42,822 bases of DNA, taken from the NCBI GenBank assembly GCA_018167975.1, contig GCA_018167975.1_4333.1. One strand, given 5' to 3'. The notes under the pieces were generated by a model that made no database searches, was not told the DNA's origin, and worked only from the letters and a program-made list of their open reading frames with translations. This DNA comes from a phage. The position numbers and the translations under genes were made by a program. This document shows, one piece after another, positions 265 to 16,999 of the stretch (within the stretch, counting starts at the first letter, position 1; every line of letters starts with the position of its first letter).

Positions 265-750
265 TCATTTAACAGCCCTCCCGATAGCCTCCGCCTCCTG
301 CCACGGTTTACCGTCGAACAGCGCCAGACGGCCAGCTGTACGGCGGCGCAGGCCAAGTAACGGTTTGCCGTTCTGGTTGATGAACAGCGCCAGCTTAGCC
401 CGCAGCGTCGTGGTATCGCCAGAACGCAGCGCCTTACCCGTGCCTGTAGTAGCTGCAATCACACCAGCACCTGCGTTGTAGACCAGGTCGCAAATTGCGT
501 CAAACTGTGCCTGTGTTAATGAATGGTGGGCTGCTGCATCAACCGCAGCTACGGCCTTAGCCATATCACGATTCAGTAACAGGAGGCCCTGACCGGGTGT
601 GATGGTCTTGCCTGGCGTTACGTCAGGCCCGTAGTGCCCGTAACCGATAGTCAGGTACTTCTCATTCGGCGTAGCGCGGTACGCGGTTCCGCGGAACCCC
701 TCAAACGCAGCGGTGAAATGCAGTCCATTATCTGAAATGTTTCGAGACAC
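265..750 (-). CDS. Endolysin, GH24 (T4/lambda-type) lysozyme
   Basis: ORF 265..801; translation contains FEGFRGTAY...TIGYGH...LNRD, typical of phage lysozymes; probable GTG start at 750 preceded by GGAGG (rc of 759-763); alternative TTG at 801. Confidence 0.8.
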   Translation of the reverse strand: MSRNISDNGLHFTAAFEGFRGTAYRATPNEKYLTIGYGHYGPDVTPGKTITPGQGLLLLNRDMAKAVAAVDAAAHHSLTQAQFDAICDLVYNAGAGVIAATTGTGKALRSGDTTTLRAKLALFINQNGKPLLGLRRRTAGRLALFDGKPWQEAEAIGRAVK

Positions 751-1000
751 GCTTATGTCCTCCGTACGATAACCACGCCTGGCGAATCTGGCGTAGCGCA
801 ACTAATGTGATTAATGTCTCGGGCAGTGTTGGTGACATGCTGCCCTGTAACAGGTGGATGCATCCGGCAGCGCAGACGATAGCGGTCAGGATATAGAGCA
901 CCCGGCCAAATAATCCGTCGTCCACGCTGGGGTGGTATACATTAAAAAGCGATGTGCCCCCGATTGCCAGCATACCGCCGAACCAGAATAACTCATTCAT
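728..1000 (-). CDS. Holin/antiholin-like small membrane protein (2 predicted TM helices)
   Basis: Internal ATG at 998-1000 with GGAGG RBS 5 nt upstream; hydrophobic stretches FWFGGMLAIGGTSLF and VLYILTAIVCAAGCIHLL; located between the other holin-like gene and the endolysin, overlapping both. Confidence 0.55.
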   Translation of the reverse strand: MNELFWFGGMLAIGGTSLFNVYHPSVDDGLFGRVLYILTAIVCAAGCIHLLQGSMSPTLPETLITLVALRQIRQAWLSYGGHKRVSKHFR

Positions 1001-3337: not shown

Positions 3338-3368
3338 CTTTTGTCTCTCCTCTCGTTTGTGTAAATGA

Positions 3369-3397
3369 ATAGTAGCCTATTCTATCTTAGCGTGCAA
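3369..3397 (-). promoter_or_regulatory. Sigma70-like promoter (minus strand): -35 TTGCAC, 17-bp spacer, -10 TACTAT, with AATAG-N4-CTATT palindrome in the spacer
   Basis: rc of 3392-3397 = TTGCAC; rc of 3369-3374 = TACTAT; spacer 17 nt; same design as the promoters at 4831, 26106, 35159 and 37018. Confidence 0.5.
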
Positions 3398-3557
3398 GTA
3401 AATTTTATTGGTGTTTGTATTGTTGCATCTCCTGCAATAGTCGCTTCGATTGTTGCGTTTGGTGAAATAGAACAAAAATGAGAAAAATGATACGCTGCTG
3501 TGTAGCAGCGTAAGTCACAAAGCCAAATAGTAACCTATTGACCTGTTACACCACCTG

Positions 3558-5756: not shown

Positions 5757-8027
5757 ATGTCCGATGTAATTTTATCCTACTCGTGGTCTCGTCGCAACGC
5801 GCGGGCAGAGAAAAAGGATATAAACGTCAGAACAACACACACGGCAACACTGGACAACCTGAAAGAGTTAATCCAGCCGCTCGATGCCGTTCGTGACGGA
5901 ATTAACCCGAAGACCGCGCCGGGCTATATCACTGCCGCGTGCGATTCTACGCACAGCACCGTAAAAGACCCGGAAACCGGTGACTTTAAGCAAGCGCGTA
6001 AAGGCTTCTTCTATCGCTGTGATGCGTCTGTAAGCAAATCGTCGCTGGCGTACCTGGACTTCGACAGTGCAACGCCGGAAGAGTATCAGGAAGCGGTGCG
6101 CCTGGTTAAGCGCAGCCGCCGGGCGATGTGCCTCTACACCACGGCATCTCATACCGATGAGTCTCCACGCTTTCGCGTCGTCATGCCACTGGGCCGTCCT
6201 GTTGAAGGTGGTGACATCATCCGCATTCGTCATGGATTGCTGGAGCACTTCTTCGAAGGCATGGGTGCTGACCGCAGCGGGTTCACTCTGTCCCAGCCGA
6301 TGTACCTGCCGCCGGTTGGCTCTCAGGTTATCTGGTCGCGTCGCAATGACCTGATTGACCCGGACGAGTTACTGGAAGGCATCCCGGATTACGAGGTGAG
6401 CAGCGCGTCTGACTACCAGATACCGGAAGAACTGCGCACCTCGTTCACGGATGCGTTCGAAGCACTGGCGTTCGAGTACGGTGGCATCATGACGCCGCGT
6501 GGCCTTAAGATACCAGCTACGCCAGAACACGCAGAGAACTACAGCGACCCGACCCCGCGCCCGGACGACTTCCTGCTGTGTTTCCCGCGCGAGGGGTATG
6601 AAGCGCCGAACGTAACCATGATTCACGACACCGACATTACGGCAACAGAAGGCATGTCACCGAAAGAGGTGTGGAAGTATGCGTGTGATGCGACCGGTCT
6701 GCCGTTCAGTGAGGTCGCTGAGGCTATTGGCTGGGGCGCACGTGAATCTATTTCATGCAGTCTCGATGACCTGGAGGACGACGAGGACTCAGAGGTGGAC
6801 GAGTTACCTGAACCGGTAAAGGCTGATTTCGTCGTCGAGGGGTACATGCCGTCAGATTGTATCTGGGATATCGTCGGGGAATCCGGCACGTACAAATCAT
6901 TCTATACGCTGGGGATGATGTACCTTAGCGCCGCCGGATACCGGTTCGCGGGGGCCGATACCCAGCGTTGCCACCATTTCTATGTCGACGGTGAGGGTGG
7001 CGCTGCTACACGTACCCGTATTGATGCGCTCGCGGCTAAATATGGCGAGGAAGGTAAAGATTATGTACATGTCATTGATATGGGCGAAGTCGGAAAACTG
7101 AAAAACCTGATTAAGCTAATGCGCGAAACTGCGGGCGATGAACCAATCGGCATGGTTGCGTTCGACACCCTTAACCAGACGCTGGCCCTGACGATTGATA
7201 AGTTCGACGAGAACAGTTCATCAACGGCAATCGGTATGGGTAAAGTTATCGCCATCCTGAAAGAAGTACGCGACGCGACTAAAGCCGCGGTAGGCGTTGT
7301 GCACCACACACCGAAAGGCGGAAAGAAAGCCCGAGGTAGCGGCGCTCTGTATGCAGGCGTAGACGTTGAACTGACAATTGAACGTGCCACCGAACGTCAG
7401 ATAAACGTATACCACTCTAAATTTAAGCACGGGCCTCAACAGAAAACGGTTGGCATGGTGTTGGAGTCAGTACAGTTCCGCGAAGCCCCGCCACCGAAAG
7501 AGTACCGCGCGGTTGAGTTCCTCGGTAGCACAGAGGAATACGGCACAATCGTAAACCTCGACCTGCCGGAACCGCACAAGGCGCTTGTGCTGATGCCGTG
7601 GGGCTTCGAACCGTTCAAAACTGACGAGGAGAAAGAGCGGGAAGAAGGGCTGACAAAGGAAGGTAAAGCGGCCATTAAAGAAAAGGTAGGTCAGTTCGAG
7701 AAACTTGATACCAAAGAAGCTACGGTTATTTACGCATTGGGTAAATTGCAGGAGCAGGGTGACGACAAGCGAGGGTTTTCTATGTCAGCTATCGTCAAAG
7801 CCGCGAAAGAAGATAGTTACGGCGTACCAATTAACGCTAATAACGACCTTCGAAAGAAACTGGAAGAGATGCACGAGGCTGGGGTTATCGTCTCGGGTCT
7901 GGATAACAACAACAGACCTATCCCTAAGCAGTACCGGTTGCCGTGGGGTATAAACGACAACAAAATACCGAAGACAATATACGAACCGAATGAGATGTTA
8001 ACAGTGACAGAGGAGGATTTGGAATGA
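5757..8027 (+). CDS. Replication primase-helicase (primase-like N-terminal domain fused to a RecA-like/AAA_25 ATPase domain)
   Basis: 756 aa; N-terminal region with LAYLDFD...CLYTTASHTDESPRFRVVMPLG (prim-pol-like); C-terminal region with GESGTYKS (P-loop-like), VAFDTLNQ and VVHHTPKGG segments typical of RepA/DnaB-type RecA folds; GAAGGAAA RBS. Confidence 0.6.
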   Translation: MSDVILSYSWSRRNARAEKKDINVRTTHTATLDNLKELIQPLDAVRDGINPKTAPGYITAACDSTHSTVKDPETGDFKQARKGFFYRCDASVSKSSLAYLDFDSATPEEYQEAVRLVKRSRRAMCLYTTASHTDESPRFRVVMPLGRPVEGGDIIRIRHGLLEHFFEGMGADRSGFTLSQPMYLPPVGSQVIWSRRNDLIDPDELLEGIPDYEVSSASDYQIPEELRTSFTDAFEALAFEYGGIMTPRGLKIPATPEHAENYSDPTPRPDDFLLCFPREGYEAPNVTMIHDTDITATEGMSPKEVWKYACDATGLPFSEVAEAIGWGARESISCSLDDLEDDEDSEVDELPEPVKADFVVEGYMPSDCIWDIVGESGTYKSFYTLGMMYLSAAGYRFAGADTQRCHHFYVDGEGGAATRTRIDALAAKYGEEGKDYVHVIDMGEVGKLKNLIKLMRETAGDEPIGMVAFDTLNQTLALTIDKFDENSSSTAIGMGKVIAILKEVRDATKAAVGVVHHTPKGGKKARGSGALYAGVDVELTIERATERQINVYHSKFKHGPQQKTVGMVLESVQFREAPPPKEYRAVEFLGSTEEYGTIVNLDLPEPHKALVLMPWGFEPFKTDEEKEREEGLTKEGKAAIKEKVGQFEKLDTKEATVIYALGKLQEQGDDKRGFSMSAIVKAAKEDSYGVPINANNDLRKKLEEMHEAGVIVSGLDNNNRPIPKQYRLPWGINDNKIPKTIYEPNEMLTVTEEDLE

Positions 8028-8338
8028 ATATCTACGATTTTATAGATAACCCGTTTAAGGCAGTGAAGGCAGGATACCGCCCGTCATACCTGACATGTGT
8101 TTCCGCGGTAAGCGGCCACTGGTGGACTTTTTGGGTTTACACGGCGGGGATTTTTGCGGAGTTTAAAGACATTTTAGATATGACGCTGGCGGAGATTATA
8201 AAGTGCCTTTTCAAGTTGATTATCGCGATAGCTATTGTAATAAGTTTTCCTGTAAGTGTGTGGTTTCTGGCCTGGATTCAGTACCTGAACGTGCAACACA
8301 CGGTTAAGAATTTGGAAGAACTCGATAAGTTGAAATAA
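8024..8338 (+). CDS. Hypothetical membrane protein
   Basis: ATGA overlap with the primase-helicase stop; hydrophobic segments HWWTFWVYTAGIFA and LIIAIAIVISFPVSVWFLAWI. Confidence 0.5.
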   Translation: MNIYDFIDNPFKAVKAGYRPSYLTCVSAVSGHWWTFWVYTAGIFAEFKDILDMTLAEIIKCLFKLIIAIAIVISFPVSVWFLAWIQYLNVQHTVKNLEELDKLK

Positions 8339-10768: not shown

Positions 10769-10923
10769 TTCGTAAAATTAAATATTGGGGGCTGGTTTCC
10801 CCTTTTATCGTAATAGGCGCGTTTACTTCGTCTATCGCGTGGGTAGACCGTAAACTTAGCGACAGTGAAACAATCGAGCGTTATTTTCTTTGGTGTGAGA
10901 AAGTTTCTAAAATTAAGCGTTGA
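10765..10923 (+). CDS. Small membrane protein (52 aa, 1 TM)
   Basis: ATGA overlap with the nuclease stop; GGAGG RBS embedded in the upstream coding sequence; hydrophobic WGLVSPFIVIGAFTSSIAW. Confidence 0.4.
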   Translation: MIRKIKYWGLVSPFIVIGAFTSSIAWVDRKLSDSETIERYFLWCEKVSKIKR

Positions 10924-10948
10924 CACCTGAATAGTTAGCTATTATAGT
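10920..10948 (+). promoter_or_regulatory. Sigma70-like promoter: -35 TTGACA, 17-bp spacer, -10 TATAGT, palindrome AATAGTTAGCTATT in spacer
   Basis: TTGACA 10920-10925, TATAGT 10943-10948; upstream of the SSB-like gene. Confidence 0.6.
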
Positions 10949-11006: not shown

Positions 11007-11633
11007 ATGGGTATTAAACTGAATCTGCGTAAAGTAAACACTGCATGGGTTAACGTATTCGAACGCGAAAAAGACCGTGAAAACGATGATGGCTCAATCA
11101 CTAAAGGTCAGTACAGCGCGACTATCATCCTGCCGTCTGACCACGCTCAAATAGACGCGCTTTACGACACTGTTTATGCTGTAGTTGAAGAAGCGTTGGG
11201 TGCAGCCGCTGCCGAGAAGTGGATGAAGTCCAACTACGGCGAAGGTAAGCACATGGATAAATGCGCGATTAAAGACATTGCCGAGCGCGACAATCCATTT
11301 GAAGACTTCCCGGAAGGCTTCTACTTCAAAGCGAAAGCGCAGAAACAGCCGCTGATTGTAACCTCTAAAAAAGGTGAGACTCAGGTGGAGCAGGACTTCA
11401 ATGTAGACGGAGAACAGATTGAAGGTGAACAGGTTTACAGCGGCTGCGTGGCCAACGTAAGCGTCGAAATCTGGTTTAGCCAGAAATACAAAGTCCTCGG
11501 CGTTAACCTGCTGGCCATTAAATACGTCGGCGAAGGTAAAGCGTTCGGTGGTTCTAAAGTCGCCGCAAGTGTCGATGACCTGGAAGACGACGAAGAAGAT
11601 GAAGCACCGCGCCGCGAACGTCGCCGTCGTTAA
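11007..11633 (+). CDS. Putative single-stranded DNA-binding protein (T7 gp2.5-like architecture, acidic C-terminal tail)
   Basis: 208 aa; C-terminal GVNLLAIKYVGEGKAFGGS followed by acidic DDLEDDEEDE tail, reminiscent of gp2.5-type SSBs; own promoter and terminator. Confidence 0.5.
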   Translation: MGIKLNLRKVNTAWVNVFEREKDRENDDGSITKGQYSATIILPSDHAQIDALYDTVYAVVEEALGAAAAEKWMKSNYGEGKHMDKCAIKDIAERDNPFEDFPEGFYFKAKAQKQPLIVTSKKGETQVEQDFNVDGEQIEGEQVYSGCVANVSVEIWFSQKYKVLGVNLLAIKYVGEGKAFGGSKVAASVDDLEDDEEDEAPRRERRRR

Positions 11634-11652: not shown

Positions 11653-11677
11653 AAGGCCCTTCATTGGGCCTTTTTAC
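11653..11677 (+). terminator. Rho-independent terminator
   Basis: Stem AGGCCC (11654-11659) / GGGCCT (11666-11671), loop TTCATT, followed by TTTTT. Confidence 0.6.
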
Positions 11678-11687
11678 CGGAGTCAGA

Positions 11688-12161
11688 ATGGAACATATAA
11701 AAGATTTTCTTAGCTATAACCGAGAAACCGGAATATTCACATGGATACAACCTACGTACAGACGAGGGAAACCTGGAGACATTGCGGGATGCATTAATAG
11801 TAGCGGATACTGGCGCATACCTTATATGGGTAGATATTACATGGCCCACAGGCTTGCTTGGTTTTTCGAGTACGGTGAATGGCCTGAGGGGCCGCTTGAC
11901 CACATAAACCGTGACAGGTTAGACAATAGGATTTCTAACCTAAGGAAAGCAACCACCGCAGATAATGTGCGAAACGCTAAAAATAAGGGAGCTAGAACGG
12001 GAGTTAAGGGAGTAGTTAAAACCGGCAACCGATTTTATGGGCGGGTACATTTTAACTACAAAAGTTATAATGCGGGTAGCTACGGAACTCTTGAAGAAGC
12101 AGAAAGCGCTGTAAAGAAATTAAGAGAAAAACTGCATAAGGAATTTTATTGCCATGACTAG
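11688..12161 (+). CDS. HNH homing endonuclease (HNH_3 catalytic motif plus AP2-like DNA-binding domain)
   Basis: ORF 11664..12161; ATG at 11688 with GGAG RBS; AHRLAWFFEYGEWPEGPLDHINRDRLDNRISNLR (HNH) and GVKGVVKTGNRFYGRV...GTLEEAESA (AP2-like). Confidence 0.75.
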   Translation: MEHIKDFLSYNRETGIFTWIQPTYRRGKPGDIAGCINSSGYWRIPYMGRYYMAHRLAWFFEYGEWPEGPLDHINRDRLDNRISNLRKATTADNVRNAKNKGARTGVKGVVKTGNRFYGRVHFNYKSYNAGSYGTLEEAESAVKKLREKLHKEFYCHD

Positions 12162-14424
12162 TTTATTATACCTGGATACCGAGACATTCTCCGAAGCAGA
12201 CTTAAAGAAAGTCGGGTCGTATGCGTATGCGGAGCACCCAACGACAGAGGTTATAATTTGTACATATGCCGTTGATGACGGCCCTGTAGAAGTATGGGAT
12301 TGCACTTCCGAACCAGTAATGCCAATAAGCCTCCGCGTAGCGCTCCGTAATGTTATGCGTGGACGTATGAAAATCGTGGGCCATAACTTTTTAATGTTCG
12401 ATCGTCTAATCCTGAAACACTGCTGGGACTTTGATATCCCGGTAAGCAACACCATTGATACGATGATTTGGGCGTTTCGTCACGCGCTGCCAGGGTCACT
12501 TGATGCGCTGTGTGAAGTGCTTGGCGTGTCCGCTGATAATGCGAAAGACAAACGCGGCAAGGCGCTGATTCAGCGTTTCTCTAAACCGACACCGAAGAAC
12601 TATAAAATCCGCCGCTACACCGCCGAAACGCACCCGGACGAATGGGCGCTGTTCATCAAGTACGCCGTGAGCGACATCACAGCGATGCGTGAAGTCTTCC
12701 ATAAGCTGCCACGTTGGGGTAACTCCGATTTCGAGGACCGTGTACTTGAACTTGACCAGTTAATCAACGACCGAGGCTTTTTTGTTGATGCAGCTCTTGC
12801 TGAGGCAGCGGTAGCGGCAGTTGAACGCCACAAGCAAGAGCTAAAAAACGAGGCCCGCGCGAAATTCGGGGGGAAACTAACGGGCAAAGACTTCCTGCCA
12901 ATCCTTCGGGAGCTGGCACCGGCCTACAATATCTATAATGCGCAGAAAGCGACGCTCGAAGGTTTGTTAGAGGACGACGACTTGCCCGACGATGCGCGTA
13001 CAATCATTGAGATGCGCCTCGGCGCGGCCTCCACGGCGTCAACAAAATATAAGCCGCTCCTGTTAGGACGGTCCAAAGACGGACGACGCCGTGGTTGCAT
13101 CCAGTATGGCGGCGCGAAGCGCACTTTACGGTTTGCGGGTAAAGGGTTCCAGCCGCAGAACCTGTCGCGCGGGTACTACCACGACGACCCGACTAACGAG
13201 GAAAAGAAACTTGTACGCCAGCCGTGGGAGTCCGACGAAGACTGGAACCGCAGGCTTAACCCGCTATCATTTGGCATCAATTTGCTTTTAAAGGGTCGGG
13301 CGCATCGCCGTTTCGATGTATCTAAGCTGACAGCTTCAACTGTTCGCAGCTGCATCATCCCTGAAAAGGGTAATAAGTTGCTCGTTGCCGACTACTCAAA
13401 CGTGGAAGGGCGCGGGTTGGCCTGGGCCGCCGGGGAGACATCCGCGCTTGAGACCTTCCGAGCAGGGATTGATATCTATTGCGCCACCGCGGGCAAGATG
13501 TTTGGCATGGACCCCGTAGAGCTAAAAGCCACCCGTAAGGACCTACGTCAGGTCGGGAAATGTTGCGAACTCGGCCTCGGCTACGAGGGGGGCGTAGGGG
13601 CCTTTATGACTATGGCTAAAACTTACGGGCTGGACCTCTTTAAAATGACGGAGACAATGCGGGGCACGTTCCCTGATCACATTTGGGCGGCTACTGCCAG
13701 GGGCTATGAATGGGCGCGGATTCAGGAGGCTAAGAGACCCCCGAAACCCGGTAAAAAGGATGAACGGGCCTCTTATGTGCTGCCTAAAGAAGTCTGGCGC
13801 ACCTGCGATGCTATCAAGCGCATGTGGCGTGAGGCCCATCCAGAAACAGTGAAATTCTGGAACGACCTTAAGGATTCGGTAATTGCCGCAATCAGAAATC
13901 CGGGACGAGAGTTTTGGGCGGGGGCCAGAGTCCGCCTTAACGGCGACAGAGCTATTCGCATCTGGCGTACTAAAGAGAAAGATAGTCAGGGTAGATTTGT
14001 GCCGGGTTGGTGGTTGTGTGTAGAACTGCCGTCAGGGCGCGTCATGTCGTACCCCGGCATAGGTCTGAGCGTTACTAAAGAAACTGACGAGGATGGGCGC
14101 GTAACAACTAACGTTCGCATTAAGTACCAGGGCGAAAACCAGACCACCCGCCAGTGGACAACTTTGTACACACACGGCGGAAAATTGTGTGAAAACATCA
14201 TCCAGGCGTTGTGCCGTGATTTACTGGTTAACGGACTCCTGACGGTCGAGGCGGCGGGCTACCCAATTGTACTCCACGTACATGACGAATGTGTTGCCGA
14301 AACGCCAGACACGCCAGAGTACACGGTTAAAGAGATGGGTGACCTGCTATGCTCATTACCCGAATGGGCCGAAGGGTTCCCGTTAACATGGGCTGGGGAA
14401 GAGGTGTACCGTTATGCTAAGTAA
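12154..14424 (+). CDS. DNA polymerase, family A (Pol I-like) with 3'-5' exonuclease domain
   Basis: 756 aa; exo motifs YLDTETFS, HNFLMFD, YAVSDITAM; polymerase motifs DYSNVEGRGLAW (A), RKDLRQVGKCCELGLGYEGG (B), VLHVHDECV (C). Confidence 0.85.
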   Translation: MTSLLYLDTETFSEADLKKVGSYAYAEHPTTEVIICTYAVDDGPVEVWDCTSEPVMPISLRVALRNVMRGRMKIVGHNFLMFDRLILKHCWDFDIPVSNTIDTMIWAFRHALPGSLDALCEVLGVSADNAKDKRGKALIQRFSKPTPKNYKIRRYTAETHPDEWALFIKYAVSDITAMREVFHKLPRWGNSDFEDRVLELDQLINDRGFFVDAALAEAAVAAVERHKQELKNEARAKFGGKLTGKDFLPILRELAPAYNIYNAQKATLEGLLEDDDLPDDARTIIEMRLGAASTASTKYKPLLLGRSKDGRRRGCIQYGGAKRTLRFAGKGFQPQNLSRGYYHDDPTNEEKKLVRQPWESDEDWNRRLNPLSFGINLLLKGRAHRRFDVSKLTASTVRSCIIPEKGNKLLVADYSNVEGRGLAWAAGETSALETFRAGIDIYCATAGKMFGMDPVELKATRKDLRQVGKCCELGLGYEGGVGAFMTMAKTYGLDLFKMTETMRGTFPDHIWAATARGYEWARIQEAKRPPKPGKKDERASYVLPKEVWRTCDAIKRMWREAHPETVKFWNDLKDSVIAAIRNPGREFWAGARVRLNGDRAIRIWRTKEKDSQGRFVPGWWLCVELPSGRVMSYPGIGLSVTKETDEDGRVTTNVRIKYQGENQTTRQWTTLYTHGGKLCENIIQALCRDLLVNGLLTVEAAGYPIVLHVHDECVAETPDTPEYTVKEMGDLLCSLPEWAEGFPLTWAGEEVYRYAK

Positions 14425-14545
14425 ACTGATTATCGCAGTACTGGCGGGATTTGCCGCCGGTGTCTACTGTCACGAGGGCCAATACGGCATGATTGTAGCC
14501 GTATTAGGTATGTTCATCGCAATTTATCTGTGGGTGCTGGAATGA
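14414..14545 (+). CDS. Small hydrophobic peptide (43 aa, 2 TM-like segments)
   Basis: Below track cutoff; ATG at 14414 with GAAGAGGTG RBS; overlaps the polymerase stop; ends in an ATGA overlap with the next micro-ORF. Confidence 0.3.
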   Translation: MLSKLIIAVLAGFAAGVYCHEGQYGMIVAVLGMFIAIYLWVLE

Positions 14546-14631
14546 AAATCTACTGGTTCTATGAAGAAGATTGCCGAATCTGTCCGCGCTGCGGGATTGA
14601 GCATACGAAACGTGAGGGGTGCGTATTATGA
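14542..14631 (+). CDS. Micro-ORF (29 aa) with CxxC...C pattern
   Basis: ATGA-coupled at both ends (start 14542, stop 14629-14631); product MKIYWFYEEDCRICPRCGIEHTKREGCVL. Confidence 0.2.
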   Translation: MKIYWFYEEDCRICPRCGIEHTKREGCVL

Positions 14632-14780
14632 CAATGTTTGTATTTTGGACGATAGTAACCATGCTCGCACTGTTACTCGGCGCAGGAATAGCTGCGATGT
14701 TCTGTTATGGCCTGTTCTTTAAGTTTGTCGGCGTTGCCGTTTTGGGTGGGGTGTTTATAACTTGGGTTCTGCGCTCATGA
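14628..14780 (+). CDS. Small hydrophobic peptide (50 aa, 2 TM-like segments)
   Basis: Below track cutoff; ATGA overlaps at both ends link it to the flanking ORFs. Confidence 0.3.
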   Translation: MTMFVFWTIVTMLALLLGAGIAAMFCYGLFFKFVGVAVLGGVFITWVLRS

Positions 14781-15091
14781 CCCCGGAAGGCAAGATTCAG
14801 AAATACGCAAAAGAGCAATTCGAGGCCATTGGTGGCCTCGTTCGCAAGATGGCATTTGAAGGTCGGCGAGCCGCTATGGACCTCCTGGTAATTCTCCCCG
14901 GAGGCATCATCTGGTTCGTTGAGGTGAAGAAAGACGAAAATACGAAGCCGGAGCCACACCAGCTACGCGAGCATGAAAGATTCCGAAAACGTGGCGCGAA
15001 TGTTTTTGTCGTTGGTTCGTTTAAACAGGTTGACACCCTAATAGCAGACTATTATAGTAAACACATACCCCAACAATATAAGGAATTATAA
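14777..15091 (+). CDS. VRR-NUC domain nuclease (PD-(D/E)XK fold)
   Basis: ORF 14762..15091; ATG at 14777; DLLVILPGGIIWFVEVKK (D...E-V-K catalytic pattern) and the small size fit VRR-NUC. Confidence 0.55.
   Translation: MTPEGKIQKYAKEQFEAIGGLVRKMAFEGRRAAMDLLVILPGGIIWFVEVKKDENTKPEPHQLREHERFRKRGANVFVVGSFKQVDTLIADYYSKHIPQQYKEL
15030..15058 (+). promoter_or_regulatory. Sigma70-like promoter: -35 TTGACA, 17-bp spacer, -10 TATAGT, palindrome AATAGCAGACTATT in spacer
   Basis: TTGACA 15030-15035, TATAGT 15053-15058; lies inside the 3' end of the VRR-NUC gene, upstream of the 15093 gene. Confidence 0.55.
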
Positions 15092-15386: not shown

Positions 15387-15578
15387 ATGAAACACGAATA
15401 TGACCGCAAGCCAGCACGTGACATCGTACCGGGCGACATGATTTTCAACGTTAAGACACGCCAACCTGTCGCCGTTGATACGGTGTTCGTAGAGTCGAAC
15501 GGTAAACTGGTTATCGAAGACGTAACAGGTAACGTTACGGCGTTCGGGCGTAAAGAGCTGGTTCTGGTGGCAAAATGA
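15387..15578 (+). CDS. Hypothetical protein
   Basis: ATG at 15387 with AAGGAA RBS; 63 aa. Confidence 0.5.
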   Translation: MKHEYDRKPARDIVPGDMIFNVKTRQPVAVDTVFVESNGKLVIEDVTGNVTAFGRKELVLVAK

Positions 15579-16999
15579 GTAAGTTTCAAAGGCGCGAATA
15601 CCAGAAGCTTATGACTTCGTTCATGCTGCAACACCCTCGCTGTAATATCTGGTGCGGTATGGGCGGCGGCAAGACCTCGTCGACAATGTGGGTGCTTAAC
15701 CGACTGTTCCGCAACGGTCAACTTAATGATGACGACCGCGTGTTAATCCTCGCCCCGCTGCGCGTTGCGTCGGGTACGTGGCCCGCAGAACAAGAGAAAT
15801 GGCAATTCCCATGTCTGAGCGTCGTCGATGCAACTGGTTCAGAAAAGCGCCGCATCGCGGCGCTGGAGTCTGACGCTAACGTGGTGTGCACGAACTACGA
15901 AGTTATCGAGTGGCTGATTGACTACTACGGCAAAGACGACTGGCCTTTTACGGTTATCGTCGCGGATGAAAGCACGAAGCTTAAATCCTTCCGCAGCCGT
16001 TCTGGTGGAAGCAAGCGGGCGAAGGCGCTTAGTAAAGTGGCATTCGGTAAGGTTAAGCGTTTTATCAACCTTACTGGCACCCCGTCGCCAAATGGCCTCA
16101 AAGACTTGTGGGGTCAGAACTGGTTTATCGACGCGGGCGAGCGCCTGGGGTCGTCGTACACGGCATTCACCGACCGCTGGTTTAACTCGGTACAGAAAGG
16201 TAAATCCGCGATGGCGCGGGAGTATCACGCTCGCCCGGGAGCGGATACCGAGATTCACCAGAAGATGAAGGACATTAGTCTAACGATTGATGCTGCCGAG
16301 TGGTTTGGATGTGAAGCGCCGATTATCGTCCCTGTTGAAATTGACCTGCCGAAGAAAGCGCGTCAGGCGTACATCGATATGGAGGAGAAGCTATTCGCAG
16401 AACTGGAAAGCGGGGAAGTTGAGGCGGCTAACGCTGCGGCGAAGACGTCGAAGTGCTTGCAGATTGCATCTGGTGCCGTGTATGTGTCAGGGCCAGACGG
16501 CGAAGCGACCAAAGACTGGGAGAAAGTGCACGACACGAAACTGGACGCACTGGAGTCCATTGTTGAGGAATTGCAGGGTGCGCCGTTACTGGTGGCCTAC
16601 CAGTTCAAGCATGAGCTTGAGCGCATCCTGAAACGATTCCCGCAGGCACAGGCGTTCGCCAAAGGTGCTAAGGGTAATAAACAGATGGAAGCGTGGAACA
16701 GAGGTGAAATCGAAATATTATGCGTTCATCCTGCGTCAGCCGGGCATGGTTTGAATTTACAGGACGGCGGGCATCATCTGGCGTTTATTTCGCAAGGCTG
16801 GAACCTTGAGCATTATTTACAGGTTGTAGAACGCATAGGGCCCGTTCGTCAGAAACAGGCCGGTCACGAGCGCCCGGTGTTCCTCTATCACATCGTCGCT
16901 AAAGACACGCTGGATGAGGTTGTTTCCGCGCGTACAGACGAGAAGAAATCAGTACAGGAAGAGTTGCTTAATTACATGAAGAGACGAGGTAAGAAATGA
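15575..16999 (+). CDS. SNF2/Rad54-family helicase (DEAD-like helicase N and C domains)
   Basis: 474 aa; Walker A GMGGGKTS, DExx box VIVADESTK, motif III NLTGTPSPN, C-terminal helicase block HPASAGHGLNLQDGGHHLAF...QVVERIGPVRQ. Confidence 0.8.
   Translation: MSKFQRREYQKLMTSFMLQHPRCNIWCGMGGGKTSSTMWVLNRLFRNGQLNDDDRVLILAPLRVASGTWPAEQEKWQFPCLSVVDATGSEKRRIAALESDANVVCTNYEVIEWLIDYYGKDDWPFTVIVADESTKLKSFRSRSGGSKRAKALSKVAFGKVKRFINLTGTPSPNGLKDLWGQNWFIDAGERLGSSYTAFTDRWFNSVQKGKSAMAREYHARPGADTEIHQKMKDISLTIDAAEWFGCEAPIIVPVEIDLPKKARQAYIDMEEKLFAELESGEVEAANAAAKTSKCLQIASGAVYVSGPDGEATKDWEKVHDTKLDALESIVEELQGAPLLVAYQFKHELERILKRFPQAQAFAKGAKGNKQMEAWNRGEIEILCVHPASAGHGLNLQDGGHHLAFISQGWNLEHYLQVVERIGPVRQKQAGHERPVFLYHIVAKDTLDEVVSARTDEKKSVQEELLNYMKRRGKK

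Follow-up and report, generated by a model that had tools for sequence, protein, structure and literature searches.

In phage T7, the interval from the DNA polymerase gene (gene 5) to the exonuclease gene (gene 6) contains genes 5.3, 5.5, 5.7 and 5.9. The products of these small T7 genes act on host factors, as in the case of gp5.9, which inhibits RecBCD (PMC9836394). Gp11 of Staphylococcus phage PhiNM1, a small membrane protein made from an early gene, targets MurG and DivIC (PMC11237401), and the phi29 proteins p1 and p16.7, which are membrane proteins encoded with the replication genes, organize viral replication at the membrane (PMC4974454). Here we describe three consecutive small open reading frames (ORF1, ORF2 and ORF3, of 43, 29 and 50 amino acids (aa)) that lie between the genes for a DNA polymerase and a VRR-NUC nuclease in a 42,822-nucleotide (nt) stretch of phage DNA (GenBank assembly GCA_018167975.1, contig GCA_018167975.1_4333.1), the whole of which is referred to below as the window. 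The region matched 251 phage records, all from Guernseyvirinae (Kagunavirus and Jerseyvirus, with Escherichia and Salmonella as hosts), the best-matching record being Escherichia phage BUCT789 at 92.5% identity, and by its sequence the window is assigned to a Guernseyvirinae siphophage of the Kagunavirus/Jerseyvirus type. Our analysis indicates that ORF1-ORF3 are probably three separate, real accessory micro-genes occupying an insertion hot spot between the polymerase and VRR-NUC genes of this phage, an interpretation that we favor while leaving appreciable room for doubt.

All three ORFs reported in the first-pass annotation of this sequence, together with their lengths, positions, ATGA overlaps and the ribosome-binding site GAAGAGGTG, are present in the window (Table 1). 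We sampled 7 GenBank and 73 IMG/VR loci anchored on the C-terminus of the polymerase, which comprised 76 distinct loci. No in-frame stop was found in any of the 38, 42 and 25 distinct sequences of ORF1, ORF2 and ORF3, respectively, and the ratio of nonsynonymous to synonymous substitution (dN/dS) was 0.215 for ORF1, 0.063 for ORF2 and 0.172 for ORF3, at synonymous divergences (pS) of 0.22, 0.43 and 0.28; the nonsynonymous divergence (pN) of ORF2 was 0.04. As benchmarks, the last 146 codons of the polymerase gave a dN/dS of 0.096 (pS 0.63, 46 distinct sequences) and codons 3-87 of the nuclease gave 0.114 (pS 0.41, 47 distinct sequences), and ORF2 is at least as constrained as either of these enzymes. 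The other two frames of ORF1-ORF3 yielded ratios of 0.8-3.3, and four of the six alternative frames contained stops in all or nearly all sequences. Changes were enriched at third codon positions, with mean pairwise differences at the first, second and third positions of 3.1, 1.7 and 7.2 in ORF1, 0.8, 0.9 and 7.0 in ORF2, and 4.5, 1.6 and 10.3 in ORF3. Because of the dN/dS values, the codon-position pattern and the open frames in relatives, ORF1, ORF2 and ORF3 are to be regarded as real protein-coding genes under purifying selection. Frame conservation and dN/dS had been proposed earlier as the means of distinguishing genes from a non-coding spacer, and the spacer reading was not upheld.

The variation observed among relatives was informative in other respects as well. 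In-frame insertions or deletions were seen in several database variants (P0064, P0082, P0106, P0184 and P0185), and at loci where ORF1 has been deleted, ORF2 is kept and is fused exactly in frame to the first six codons of ORF1 (MLSKLI-IYYF...). At two loci (L023 and L024) ORF2 starts with GTG instead of ATG and the 4-nt overlap is kept. When the 367 nt of the chain were shuffled with their dinucleotides preserved and the first ATG held fixed, a coupled tiling of ATG-initiated ORFs of at least 20 codons each arose in 31 of 20,000 shuffles. We also considered programmed frameshifting from ORF1 into ORF2 and rejected it: on reading the sequence, the ORF2 frame is open only from position 14530 and no slippery heptamer occurs in 14530-14545, while the ORF1'-ORF2 fusions found in databases stem from indels at differing positions, which counts against such a mechanism.

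The three genes had been presented as one chain, but they are not an obligate unit. All three were present at 25 of the distinct loci, ORF1 and ORF2 at 22, ORF2 and ORF3 at 2, ORF2 alone at 5, and none of them at the remaining 22. On the basis of these counts, ORF2 serves as the fixed core gene in the polymerase-nuclease slot of this clade (54/54 close relatives sampled), and ORF1 and ORF3 are independent optional cassettes. A tblastn search placed ORF2 in 445 phage records; in 14 of 40 records sampled from these, no feature was annotated under the match. The junction itself, which the first-pass annotation regarded as a placement with no obvious function, proved to be a hypervariable insertion slot. 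In seven more distant relatives the slot is 0 bp long, the polymerase gene being joined straight to the nuclease gene with an overlap of -1 or -4, and elsewhere its length ranges from 86 to 1125 bp: ORF2 alone occupies 86 bp, ORF1 and ORF2 together 202 bp, all three ORFs 352 bp, as in the window, and a slot with an extra 64-aa gene 543 bp. Other inserts comprise HNH endonucleases of 152-231 aa, a 215-aa methyltransferase, SprT-like HExxH proteins, a 63-aa protein and hydrophobic peptides of 23-25 aa, with the small genes spanning 23-64 aa overall. Depending on the locus, what comes after the same junction sequence downstream of ORF2 (...TG[CT] GTA TTATGA) is ORF3, the 64-aa gene, an HNH gene, one of the tiny peptides or the nuclease. 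The comparison thus points to a slot that is filled and emptied by recombination at shared start/stop junctions, with ORF1 and ORF3 as dispensable cassettes that could be exchanged independently.

Several of these inserts deserve mention in their own right. The extra conserved gene of 63-64 aa (MSNKPFSKKLAALVDMPEWEF...CAGCTHKG...), which is not in the window, was found between ORF2 and ORF3 or the nuclease at nine loci (L005, L008, L013, L017, L018, L030, L036, L044 and L056), and its sole Pfam hint was a sub-threshold match to the A2L zinc ribbon (E 0.005). Three outgroup slots (L058, L067 and L079) contain a protein of 110-120 aa with an HExxH motif (AHEMTHVALN-like), which suggests an SprT-like metalloprotease; these proteins had no Pfam match at E up to 1. 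The slot of another locus (L051) contains a 40-aa HNH remnant.

The nucleotide sequences of the three ORFs are more conserved than those of their neighbors. Median nucleotide identity to the window was 67% for the last 300 nt of the polymerase gene, 92% for ORF1, 87% for ORF2, 88% for ORF3 and 81% for the nuclease gene. ORF1-ORF3 are present at ~90% identity behind polymerase genes of three allele groups, whose last 600 nt are ~90-100%, 70% and 62% identical to the window, with a sharp mosaic boundary at the polymerase stop and ORF1 start (loci L003-L056), and synonymous divergence is much lower in ORF1 and ORF3 than in the polymerase. An RNA or DNA cis-element was considered as the cause of this conservation and was ruled out: an Rfam search of the region (E up to 1) returned no match, folding z-scores of +0.10 and +1.25 gave no RNA-structure signal, and a repeat scan detected no significant repeats, just two weak inverted ones. 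Since RNA structure, Rfam families and repeats fail to explain the nucleotide conservation, recombination, possibly in the form of co-conversion around a homing-endonuclease site, is the likelier process behind it. Both ends of the polymerase gene appear to be homing sites, because an HNH_3 gene lies upstream of it in the window and related HNH genes occupy the polymerase-nuclease slot in other phages. The HNH_3 gene overlaps the polymerase start by 8 nt, and at the corresponding insertion site BUCT789 has a gap of just 58 nt.

The arrangement of translation signals along the chain suggests how the genes would be expressed. The Shine-Dalgarno (SD) site of ORF1 had a mean duplex energy of -6.7 kcal/mol over 19 distinct upstream sequences, compared to a background mean of -2.1, and for the site within the ORF2 codons the means were -8.3 kcal/mol with ORF3 as the next gene, -9.4 with the 64-aa gene and -9.2 with the nuclease gene directly following. 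ORF2's own SD (mean -3.6 kcal/mol) and that of the nuclease gene after ORF3 (-3.1 in the window, mean -3.3) were near background, so that SD strength alternates along the chain, being strong for ORF1, weak for ORF2, strong for ORF3 and weak for the nuclease. Judging from its pairing energies, GAGGGGTG is a portable ribosome-binding site that serves any gene placed next to ORF2. The offsets at the junctions (-11, -4, -4 and -4) are found again in almost every locus, with GTGA in place of ATGA at junctions in four of them (L023, L024, L012 and L046). We therefore envisage a relay, in which ORF1 and ORF3 would be initiated from strong SD sites located within the final codons of the gene upstream, and ORF2 and the nuclease most likely start by termination-reinitiation at the ATGA overlaps. 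Because a consensus scan of 51 relatives detected no promoter-like pattern inside the slot, ORF1-ORF3 are most simply read as part of the polymerase transcript. A site of the sigma-70 type upstream of the polymerase, which probably marks the start of the operon containing the slot, would transcribe them together with it. The strict form of a second promoter-like pattern, in the 3′ end of the nuclease gene, was found at that place in only 10 of the 51 relatives.

As regards their products, the first-pass annotation had described a coupled operon of membrane micropeptides. The genes are indeed co-oriented and start/stop-coupled within the polymerase operon, and two of the products are strongly hydrophobic, with a grand average of hydropathy (GRAVY) of +1.53 for ORF1 and +1.81 for ORF3; both are predicted membrane peptides by hydropathy and AlphaFold2 (AF2) modeling. 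The label does not fit the ORF2 product, however, which is hydrophilic (GRAVY -0.43) and rich in Cys and His. ORF1 matches phrog_10404 over residues 1-43 of 43 (E 9.1e-31), a family of 84 protein clusters, almost all of 43 aa. Its AF2 model comprises a helix at residues 2-20, a break and a helix at 22-42, with a mean predicted local distance difference test score (pLDDT) of 93.8 and a predicted template-modeling score (pTM) of 0.66, and it superposes on transmembrane hairpins with a TMq of up to 0.77 and a root-mean-square deviation of 1.7 Å, at no significant E-value; in the fold search of the PDB with this model, all E-values exceeded 5. The first hydrophobic stretch is only ~14 residues long, the best-conserved part is the polar turn VYCHEGQYG, and the C-terminus reads ...YLWVLE. 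Taken together, ORF1 is predicted to form a two-helix inner-membrane hairpin with a conserved polar turn.

ORF3 matches phrog_14925 over residues 1-50 of 50 (E 6.4e-33), and its family contains 103 clusters. Gly18, Gly20, Gly35 and Gly41 are invariant in the alignment, and the C-terminus reads ...TWVLRS. From modeling, ORF3 is predicted to be a glycine-studded, fully helical membrane peptide, arranged either as a hairpin or as a single span with an interfacial helix. ORF1 and ORF3 have the pattern AG[FI]AA...VAVLG...WVL in common, and a natural recombinant of the two exists (P0186), both of which hinted at a paralogous origin. We rejected it, as the Smith-Waterman score of 37 corresponded to z-scores of 1.9 with plain and 1.8 with segment-preserving shuffles, and 286 of 5000 shuffles scored as well. 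Sub-threshold Pfam and NCBIfam matches to EMC6, MARVEL, SPC12 and PufX were likewise discarded, being driven by composition and no evidence of membership.

The CxxC...C pattern noted previously in the middle ORF is present, and it is richer than was described, since the ORF2 product carries C11-x2-C14-x2-C17-x3-H21-x5-C27 with a CPRCG knuckle formed around C14 and C17. At the five candidate ligand positions, 41 of 51 copies have CCCHC, and at least four of the five are kept in all 51. ORF2 matches phrog_38225 (E 2.5e-22, residues 1-28 on profile positions 5-32 of 36); its best Pfam match, zf_C2H2_ZNF598, was not significant (E 0.22), NCBIfam gave none, and its sub-threshold matches in the PDB were mostly zinc-ribbon knuckles (COX5B, Nop10, RpoM and S27ae). 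We find it most likely, from the residue pattern, that ORF2 is a soluble mini-protein in which the CPRCG knuckle and C27, with H21 or C11, would hold zinc; such a protein would most likely have a nucleic acid or a protein as its binding partner. When 1.84 billion representatives were scanned exhaustively by phmmer with the 33-aa GTG-extended frame of the window as query, ORF2's own family alone was recovered. The lone match outside it, P0189 (341 aa, E 3e-4), is a translated tandem repeat and was dismissed as spurious.

None of the three genes is new to the databases. In BUCT789 the homologues XQU49907, XQU49906 and XQU49905 are annotated as hypothetical; the ORF1 and ORF2 proteins are 100% identical and the ORF3 protein 94% identical to those of the window, in the same order and with the same overlaps. 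By sequence identity and profile matches, ORF1-ORF3 are the same genes as these and as the members of the three PHROG families, which have no functional annotation. They are thus already in public annotation and family catalogues and are of an ordinary kind for phages. The ORF1 and ORF3 families are lineage-restricted, their full-length members being at least ~76% identical and all on contigs of at most ~46 kb. Our literature searches turned up no transcriptomic, proteomic or functional work on these genes in Guernseyvirinae.

The surroundings of the locus are summarized in Table 1.

Table 1. Coordinates of the polymerase-nuclease slot, its signals and other features of the window.
Feature	Position	Strand	Remarks
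Endolysin homologue	268-762	-	
38-aa ORF	3365-3481	+	Strongly hydrophobic segment
104-aa ORF	8024-8338	+	Right after helicase/primase gene; strongly hydrophobic segments
Terminator-like hairpin	10787-10802		Just upstream of the following promoter-like site
Promoter-like site	10920-10948	+	TTGACA-17-TATAGT; consensus scan, 11/12 matches
Enc34-type ssDNA-binding protein	11007-11633	+	Upstream neighbor
HNH_3 homing endonuclease (165 aa)	11664-12161	+	E 2.5e-15; between ssDNA-binding protein gene and polymerase gene
Family-A DNA polymerase (756 aa)	12154-14424	+	Pfam DNA_pol_A 2.1e-12; stop TAA 14422-14424; upstream anchor of slot
SD site GAAGAGGTG for ORF1	14398-14406	+	Within last polymerase codons; anti-SD duplex -7.1 kcal/mol
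ORF1 (43 aa)	14414-14545	+	ATG 14414, TGA 14543-14545; overlaps polymerase gene by 11 nt; phrog_10404
ORF2 (29 aa, MKIYWFYEEDCRICPRCGIEHTKREGCVL)	14542-14631	+	ATG 14542, stop 14629-14631; ATGA overlap with ORF1; phrog_38225
SD site GAGGGGTG	14614-14621	+	Within ORF2 codons R-E-G-C; -8.5 kcal/mol in window
ORF3 (50 aa)	14628-14780	+	ATG 14628, stop 14778-14780; ATGA overlap with ORF2; phrog_14925
VRR-NUC nuclease (104 aa)	14777-15091	+	PDB 4QBN match; ATGA overlap with ORF3; downstream anchor of slot
Promoter-like site	15030-15058	+	Consensus scan, 11/12; in nuclease 3′ end, ahead of next gene block
SNF2-type helicase	15575-16999	+	Further downstream of nuclease
Imm-like ORF (63 aa)	26176-26367	+	Two membrane segments; Imm_superinfect PF14373
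376-aa ORF	26406-27536		Just downstream of Imm-like ORF

The polymerase is annotated as DNA polymerase I in relatives and has a sub-threshold Pfam match to a 3′-5′ exonuclease. The nuclease matches chain 4QBN_A over residues 2-93 (E 2.5e-48), whose depositors named the molecule 'Nuclease' and which we take to be a phage VRR-NUC protein; it also matches PHROG families of endonucleases and Holliday-junction resolvases, and in relatives it is annotated as a VRR-NUC domain protein or a Holliday junction resolvase. A Pfam scan (E up to 1) did not return the VRR-NUC family among its matches, only a weak NERD match, a result that suggests insufficient sensitivity of the profiles for this phage subgroup. 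The tight packing that the first-pass annotation singled out is a genome-wide style and is not peculiar to the ORF1-ORF3 chain: in BUCT789, 31 of 61 same-strand neighbor pairs overlap (in 18 cases the overlap is exactly 4 nt), and genes encoding 60 aa or fewer make up 16 of the 67. Among the annotated genes of BUCT789 of up to 80 aa, ORF1 and ORF3 are the sole strongly hydrophobic proteins, and only five ORFs of 25-130 aa in the window have a comparably hydrophobic 17-residue stretch.

Elsewhere in the window, a 63-aa ORF matched Imm_superinfect (E 6.2e-14, 52.1 bits against a cut-off of 27.9) and is identified by this match as a superinfection-immunity gene of the T4 Imm type. The structural genes are on the other strand, and the 376-aa ORF that follows the Imm-like ORF is probably, by size and position, the calcineurin-like phosphoesterase annotated in BUCT789. 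The hydrophobic 104-aa ORF had only sub-threshold Pfam matches, to DUF4750 and TatC.

Within the interpretation of ORF1-ORF3 as accessory micro-genes, ORF1 and ORF3 most likely would act on components of the host inner membrane, by analogy with other small phage membrane proteins. A host-directed accessory role is favored for them because they are optional, independently distributed and lineage-restricted and because the slot takes selfish and accessory cargo. A number of observations weigh against parts of this interpretation. ORF1, ORF2 and ORF3 all fall below the Pfam and NCBIfam thresholds, and the best E-value of ORF2 against solved structures in the PDB was 0.4, with no significant match. 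In 7 of 51 copies Arg or Phe stands at position 11 in place of the Cys, and C27R occurs in one database sequence, which makes the ligand set of ORF2 uncertain. The AF2 model of ORF3 is one continuous helix at residues 2-49 (pLDDT 90.5), not a hairpin. Among the database clusters, approximately 8-9% represent frameshifted or fused variants, and most of these are singletons that come from read-level assemblies; the fused variants (P0074, P0079-P0081, P0084, P0154, P0172, P0176 and P0186), some on near-full-length contigs, are of the types ORF1'-ORF2, ORF2-ORF3 and ORF1(1-15)-ORF3(23-50) and originated from indels or deletions. These variants could be assembly errors, or they could reflect an occasional loss of ORF1 or ORF3 that comes at no cost. 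Finally, the Imm-type superinfection-immunity gene already present in this phage removes one obvious role.

The main rival to the accessory reading is a replication-linked role drawn from analogy, in which ORF2 would bind zinc and serve the polymerase or the VRR-NUC resolvase as a small cofactor or regulator, and ORF1 and ORF3 would anchor the replication/recombination machinery at the inner membrane, as p1 and p16.7 do in phi29. The location of the genes between polymerase and nuclease, their co-translation with both, the universal presence of ORF2 in the clade and its constraint relative to the two enzymes are all consistent with such a role, and phi29 provides a precedent for small early membrane proteins that anchor phage replication (PMC4974454). 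We nevertheless consider it unlikely, given that 22 more distant relatives with a homologous polymerase (~60%) and nuclease (44-64% identity) lack all three ORFs and that 7 of them couple the polymerase directly to the nuclease. Moreover, ORF1 and ORF3 are each missing from many otherwise similar phages and are independently distributed, unrelated cargo such as HNH endonucleases and a methyltransferase occupies the same slot, and the ORFs have no homology to p1 or p16.7. A related proposal, to which we assign a distinctly small chance, is that ORF2 is an unrecognized clade-wide zinc-knuckle microprotein of 29 residues that works directly with the polymerase or the VRR-NUC resolvase, or controls their expression, and that ORF1 and ORF3 are exchangeable membrane tethers or modulators of the same process; if true, the locus would be a replication/recombination-linked microprotein module and not generic host-takeover cargo. 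The traffic of homing endonucleases offers another explanation, namely that the ORFs travelled along with selfish DNA, or were left behind by it, and owe their similarity to gene conversion and not to any benefit for the phage. HNH genes do occur in the same slot at several loci and directly upstream of the polymerase gene in the window, an HNH remnant persists at one locus, and both the low synonymous divergence of ORF1 and ORF3 and the sharp mosaic boundary would fit. However, conversion alone would not favor synonymous differences, and dN/dS is well below 1 with no in-frame stops; the ORFs share no sequence similarity with HNH proteins, and ORF2 combines a normal synonymous divergence with a very low pN, all of which makes this explanation very unlikely.

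Three further alternatives carry still less weight. If the chain served only as a translational relay that carries ribosomes from polymerase to nuclease through functionless peptides, the near-background SD sites of the nuclease after ORF3 and of ORF2 and the conserved start/stop overlaps would be expected; yet amino acids are under strong purifying selection while synonymous sites diverge, most clearly in ORF2, a nuclease gene directly following ORF2 uses a strong SD, and in distant relatives the nuclease is coupled straight to the polymerase with no need of relay peptides, so that we regard a pure relay as highly improbable. Holins and type-I toxins are small membrane peptides, and ORF1 and ORF3, being small, very hydrophobic and helical, might in principle be lysis-related (holin-, antiholin- or pinholin-like) or depolarize membranes in the manner of type-I toxins. 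We give this equally little credence, as the endolysin homologue lies ~13 kb away on the minus strand while ORF1 and ORF3 belong to the polymerase operon, where a lysis effector would be expressed too early, together with the polymerase. In addition, the ends of ORF1 (WVLE) and ORF3 (VLRS) do not have the charged hydrophilic C-terminal tail typical of holins, and no holin match was obtained in Pfam, NCBIfam or the function-annotated PHROGs. As for chance open frames in a non-coding spacer, or a conserved RNA or DNA cis-element, the shortness of the ORFs, the frequent absence of ORF2 from annotation and a nucleotide conservation above that of the neighbors might be cited in support, but the codon-position pattern and dN/dS indicate coding, chance tiling was rare in the shuffles, and Rfam, folding and repeat scans were all negative. 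This last alternative has almost no chance of being correct and appears effectively refuted by the comparative analysis.

The accessory micro-gene interpretation leaves current understanding unchallenged, and the new points are modest: ORF2 is universal, strongly constrained and often unannotated, and the slot swaps cassettes at exact junctions. Their practical value lies mainly in annotation and method, in that many annotations miss a 29-codon gene found in the genomes of hundreds of Salmonella and E. coli phages; many of the phages that carry it are under study as candidates for therapy or biocontrol. The slot also provides a clear example of accessory-gene swapping at start/stop junctions, with each gene carrying the ribosome-binding site of the next. 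Should specific host or replication partners be found, these proteins would be additions to the short list of characterized phage microproteins.

Compared with known systems, ORF2 shares with zinc ribbons and knuckles (CPxCG, CCHC) a CPRCG knuckle that follows an aromatic stretch, together with extra Cys and His residues, whereas zinc ribbons usually have two knuckles and four ligands and ORF2 has one canonical knuckle and no significant match. At 29 aa it is far shorter than the small phage zinc-finger regulators P2 Ogr (~72 aa) and Mu Com (~62 aa). Proteins of the T4 Imm type, which are two-segment inner-membrane phage proteins, are small like ORF1 and ORF3, but neither of the latter matched PF14373 at E up to 1. 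The phi29 proteins p1 and p16.7, which are part of a protein-primed replication system, exceed ORF1 and ORF3 in size and have no homology to either of them, and ORF1 and ORF3 are dispensable across close relatives. PhiNM1 Gp11 differs in its host and likewise has no homology to them; what they have in common is that they are small (in the case of ORF1 and ORF3, predicted) membrane proteins among early or replication genes, outside the lysis cassette. The T7 5.3-5.9 proteins are soluble, acidic or DNA-mimicking, in contrast to the hydrophobic or Cys-rich products of the slot, and there is no sequence similarity between the two sets. Nonetheless, both loci consist of a run of small, packed accessory genes between a polymerase and a nuclease, and by layout the T7 run is the closest analogue of the locus described here.

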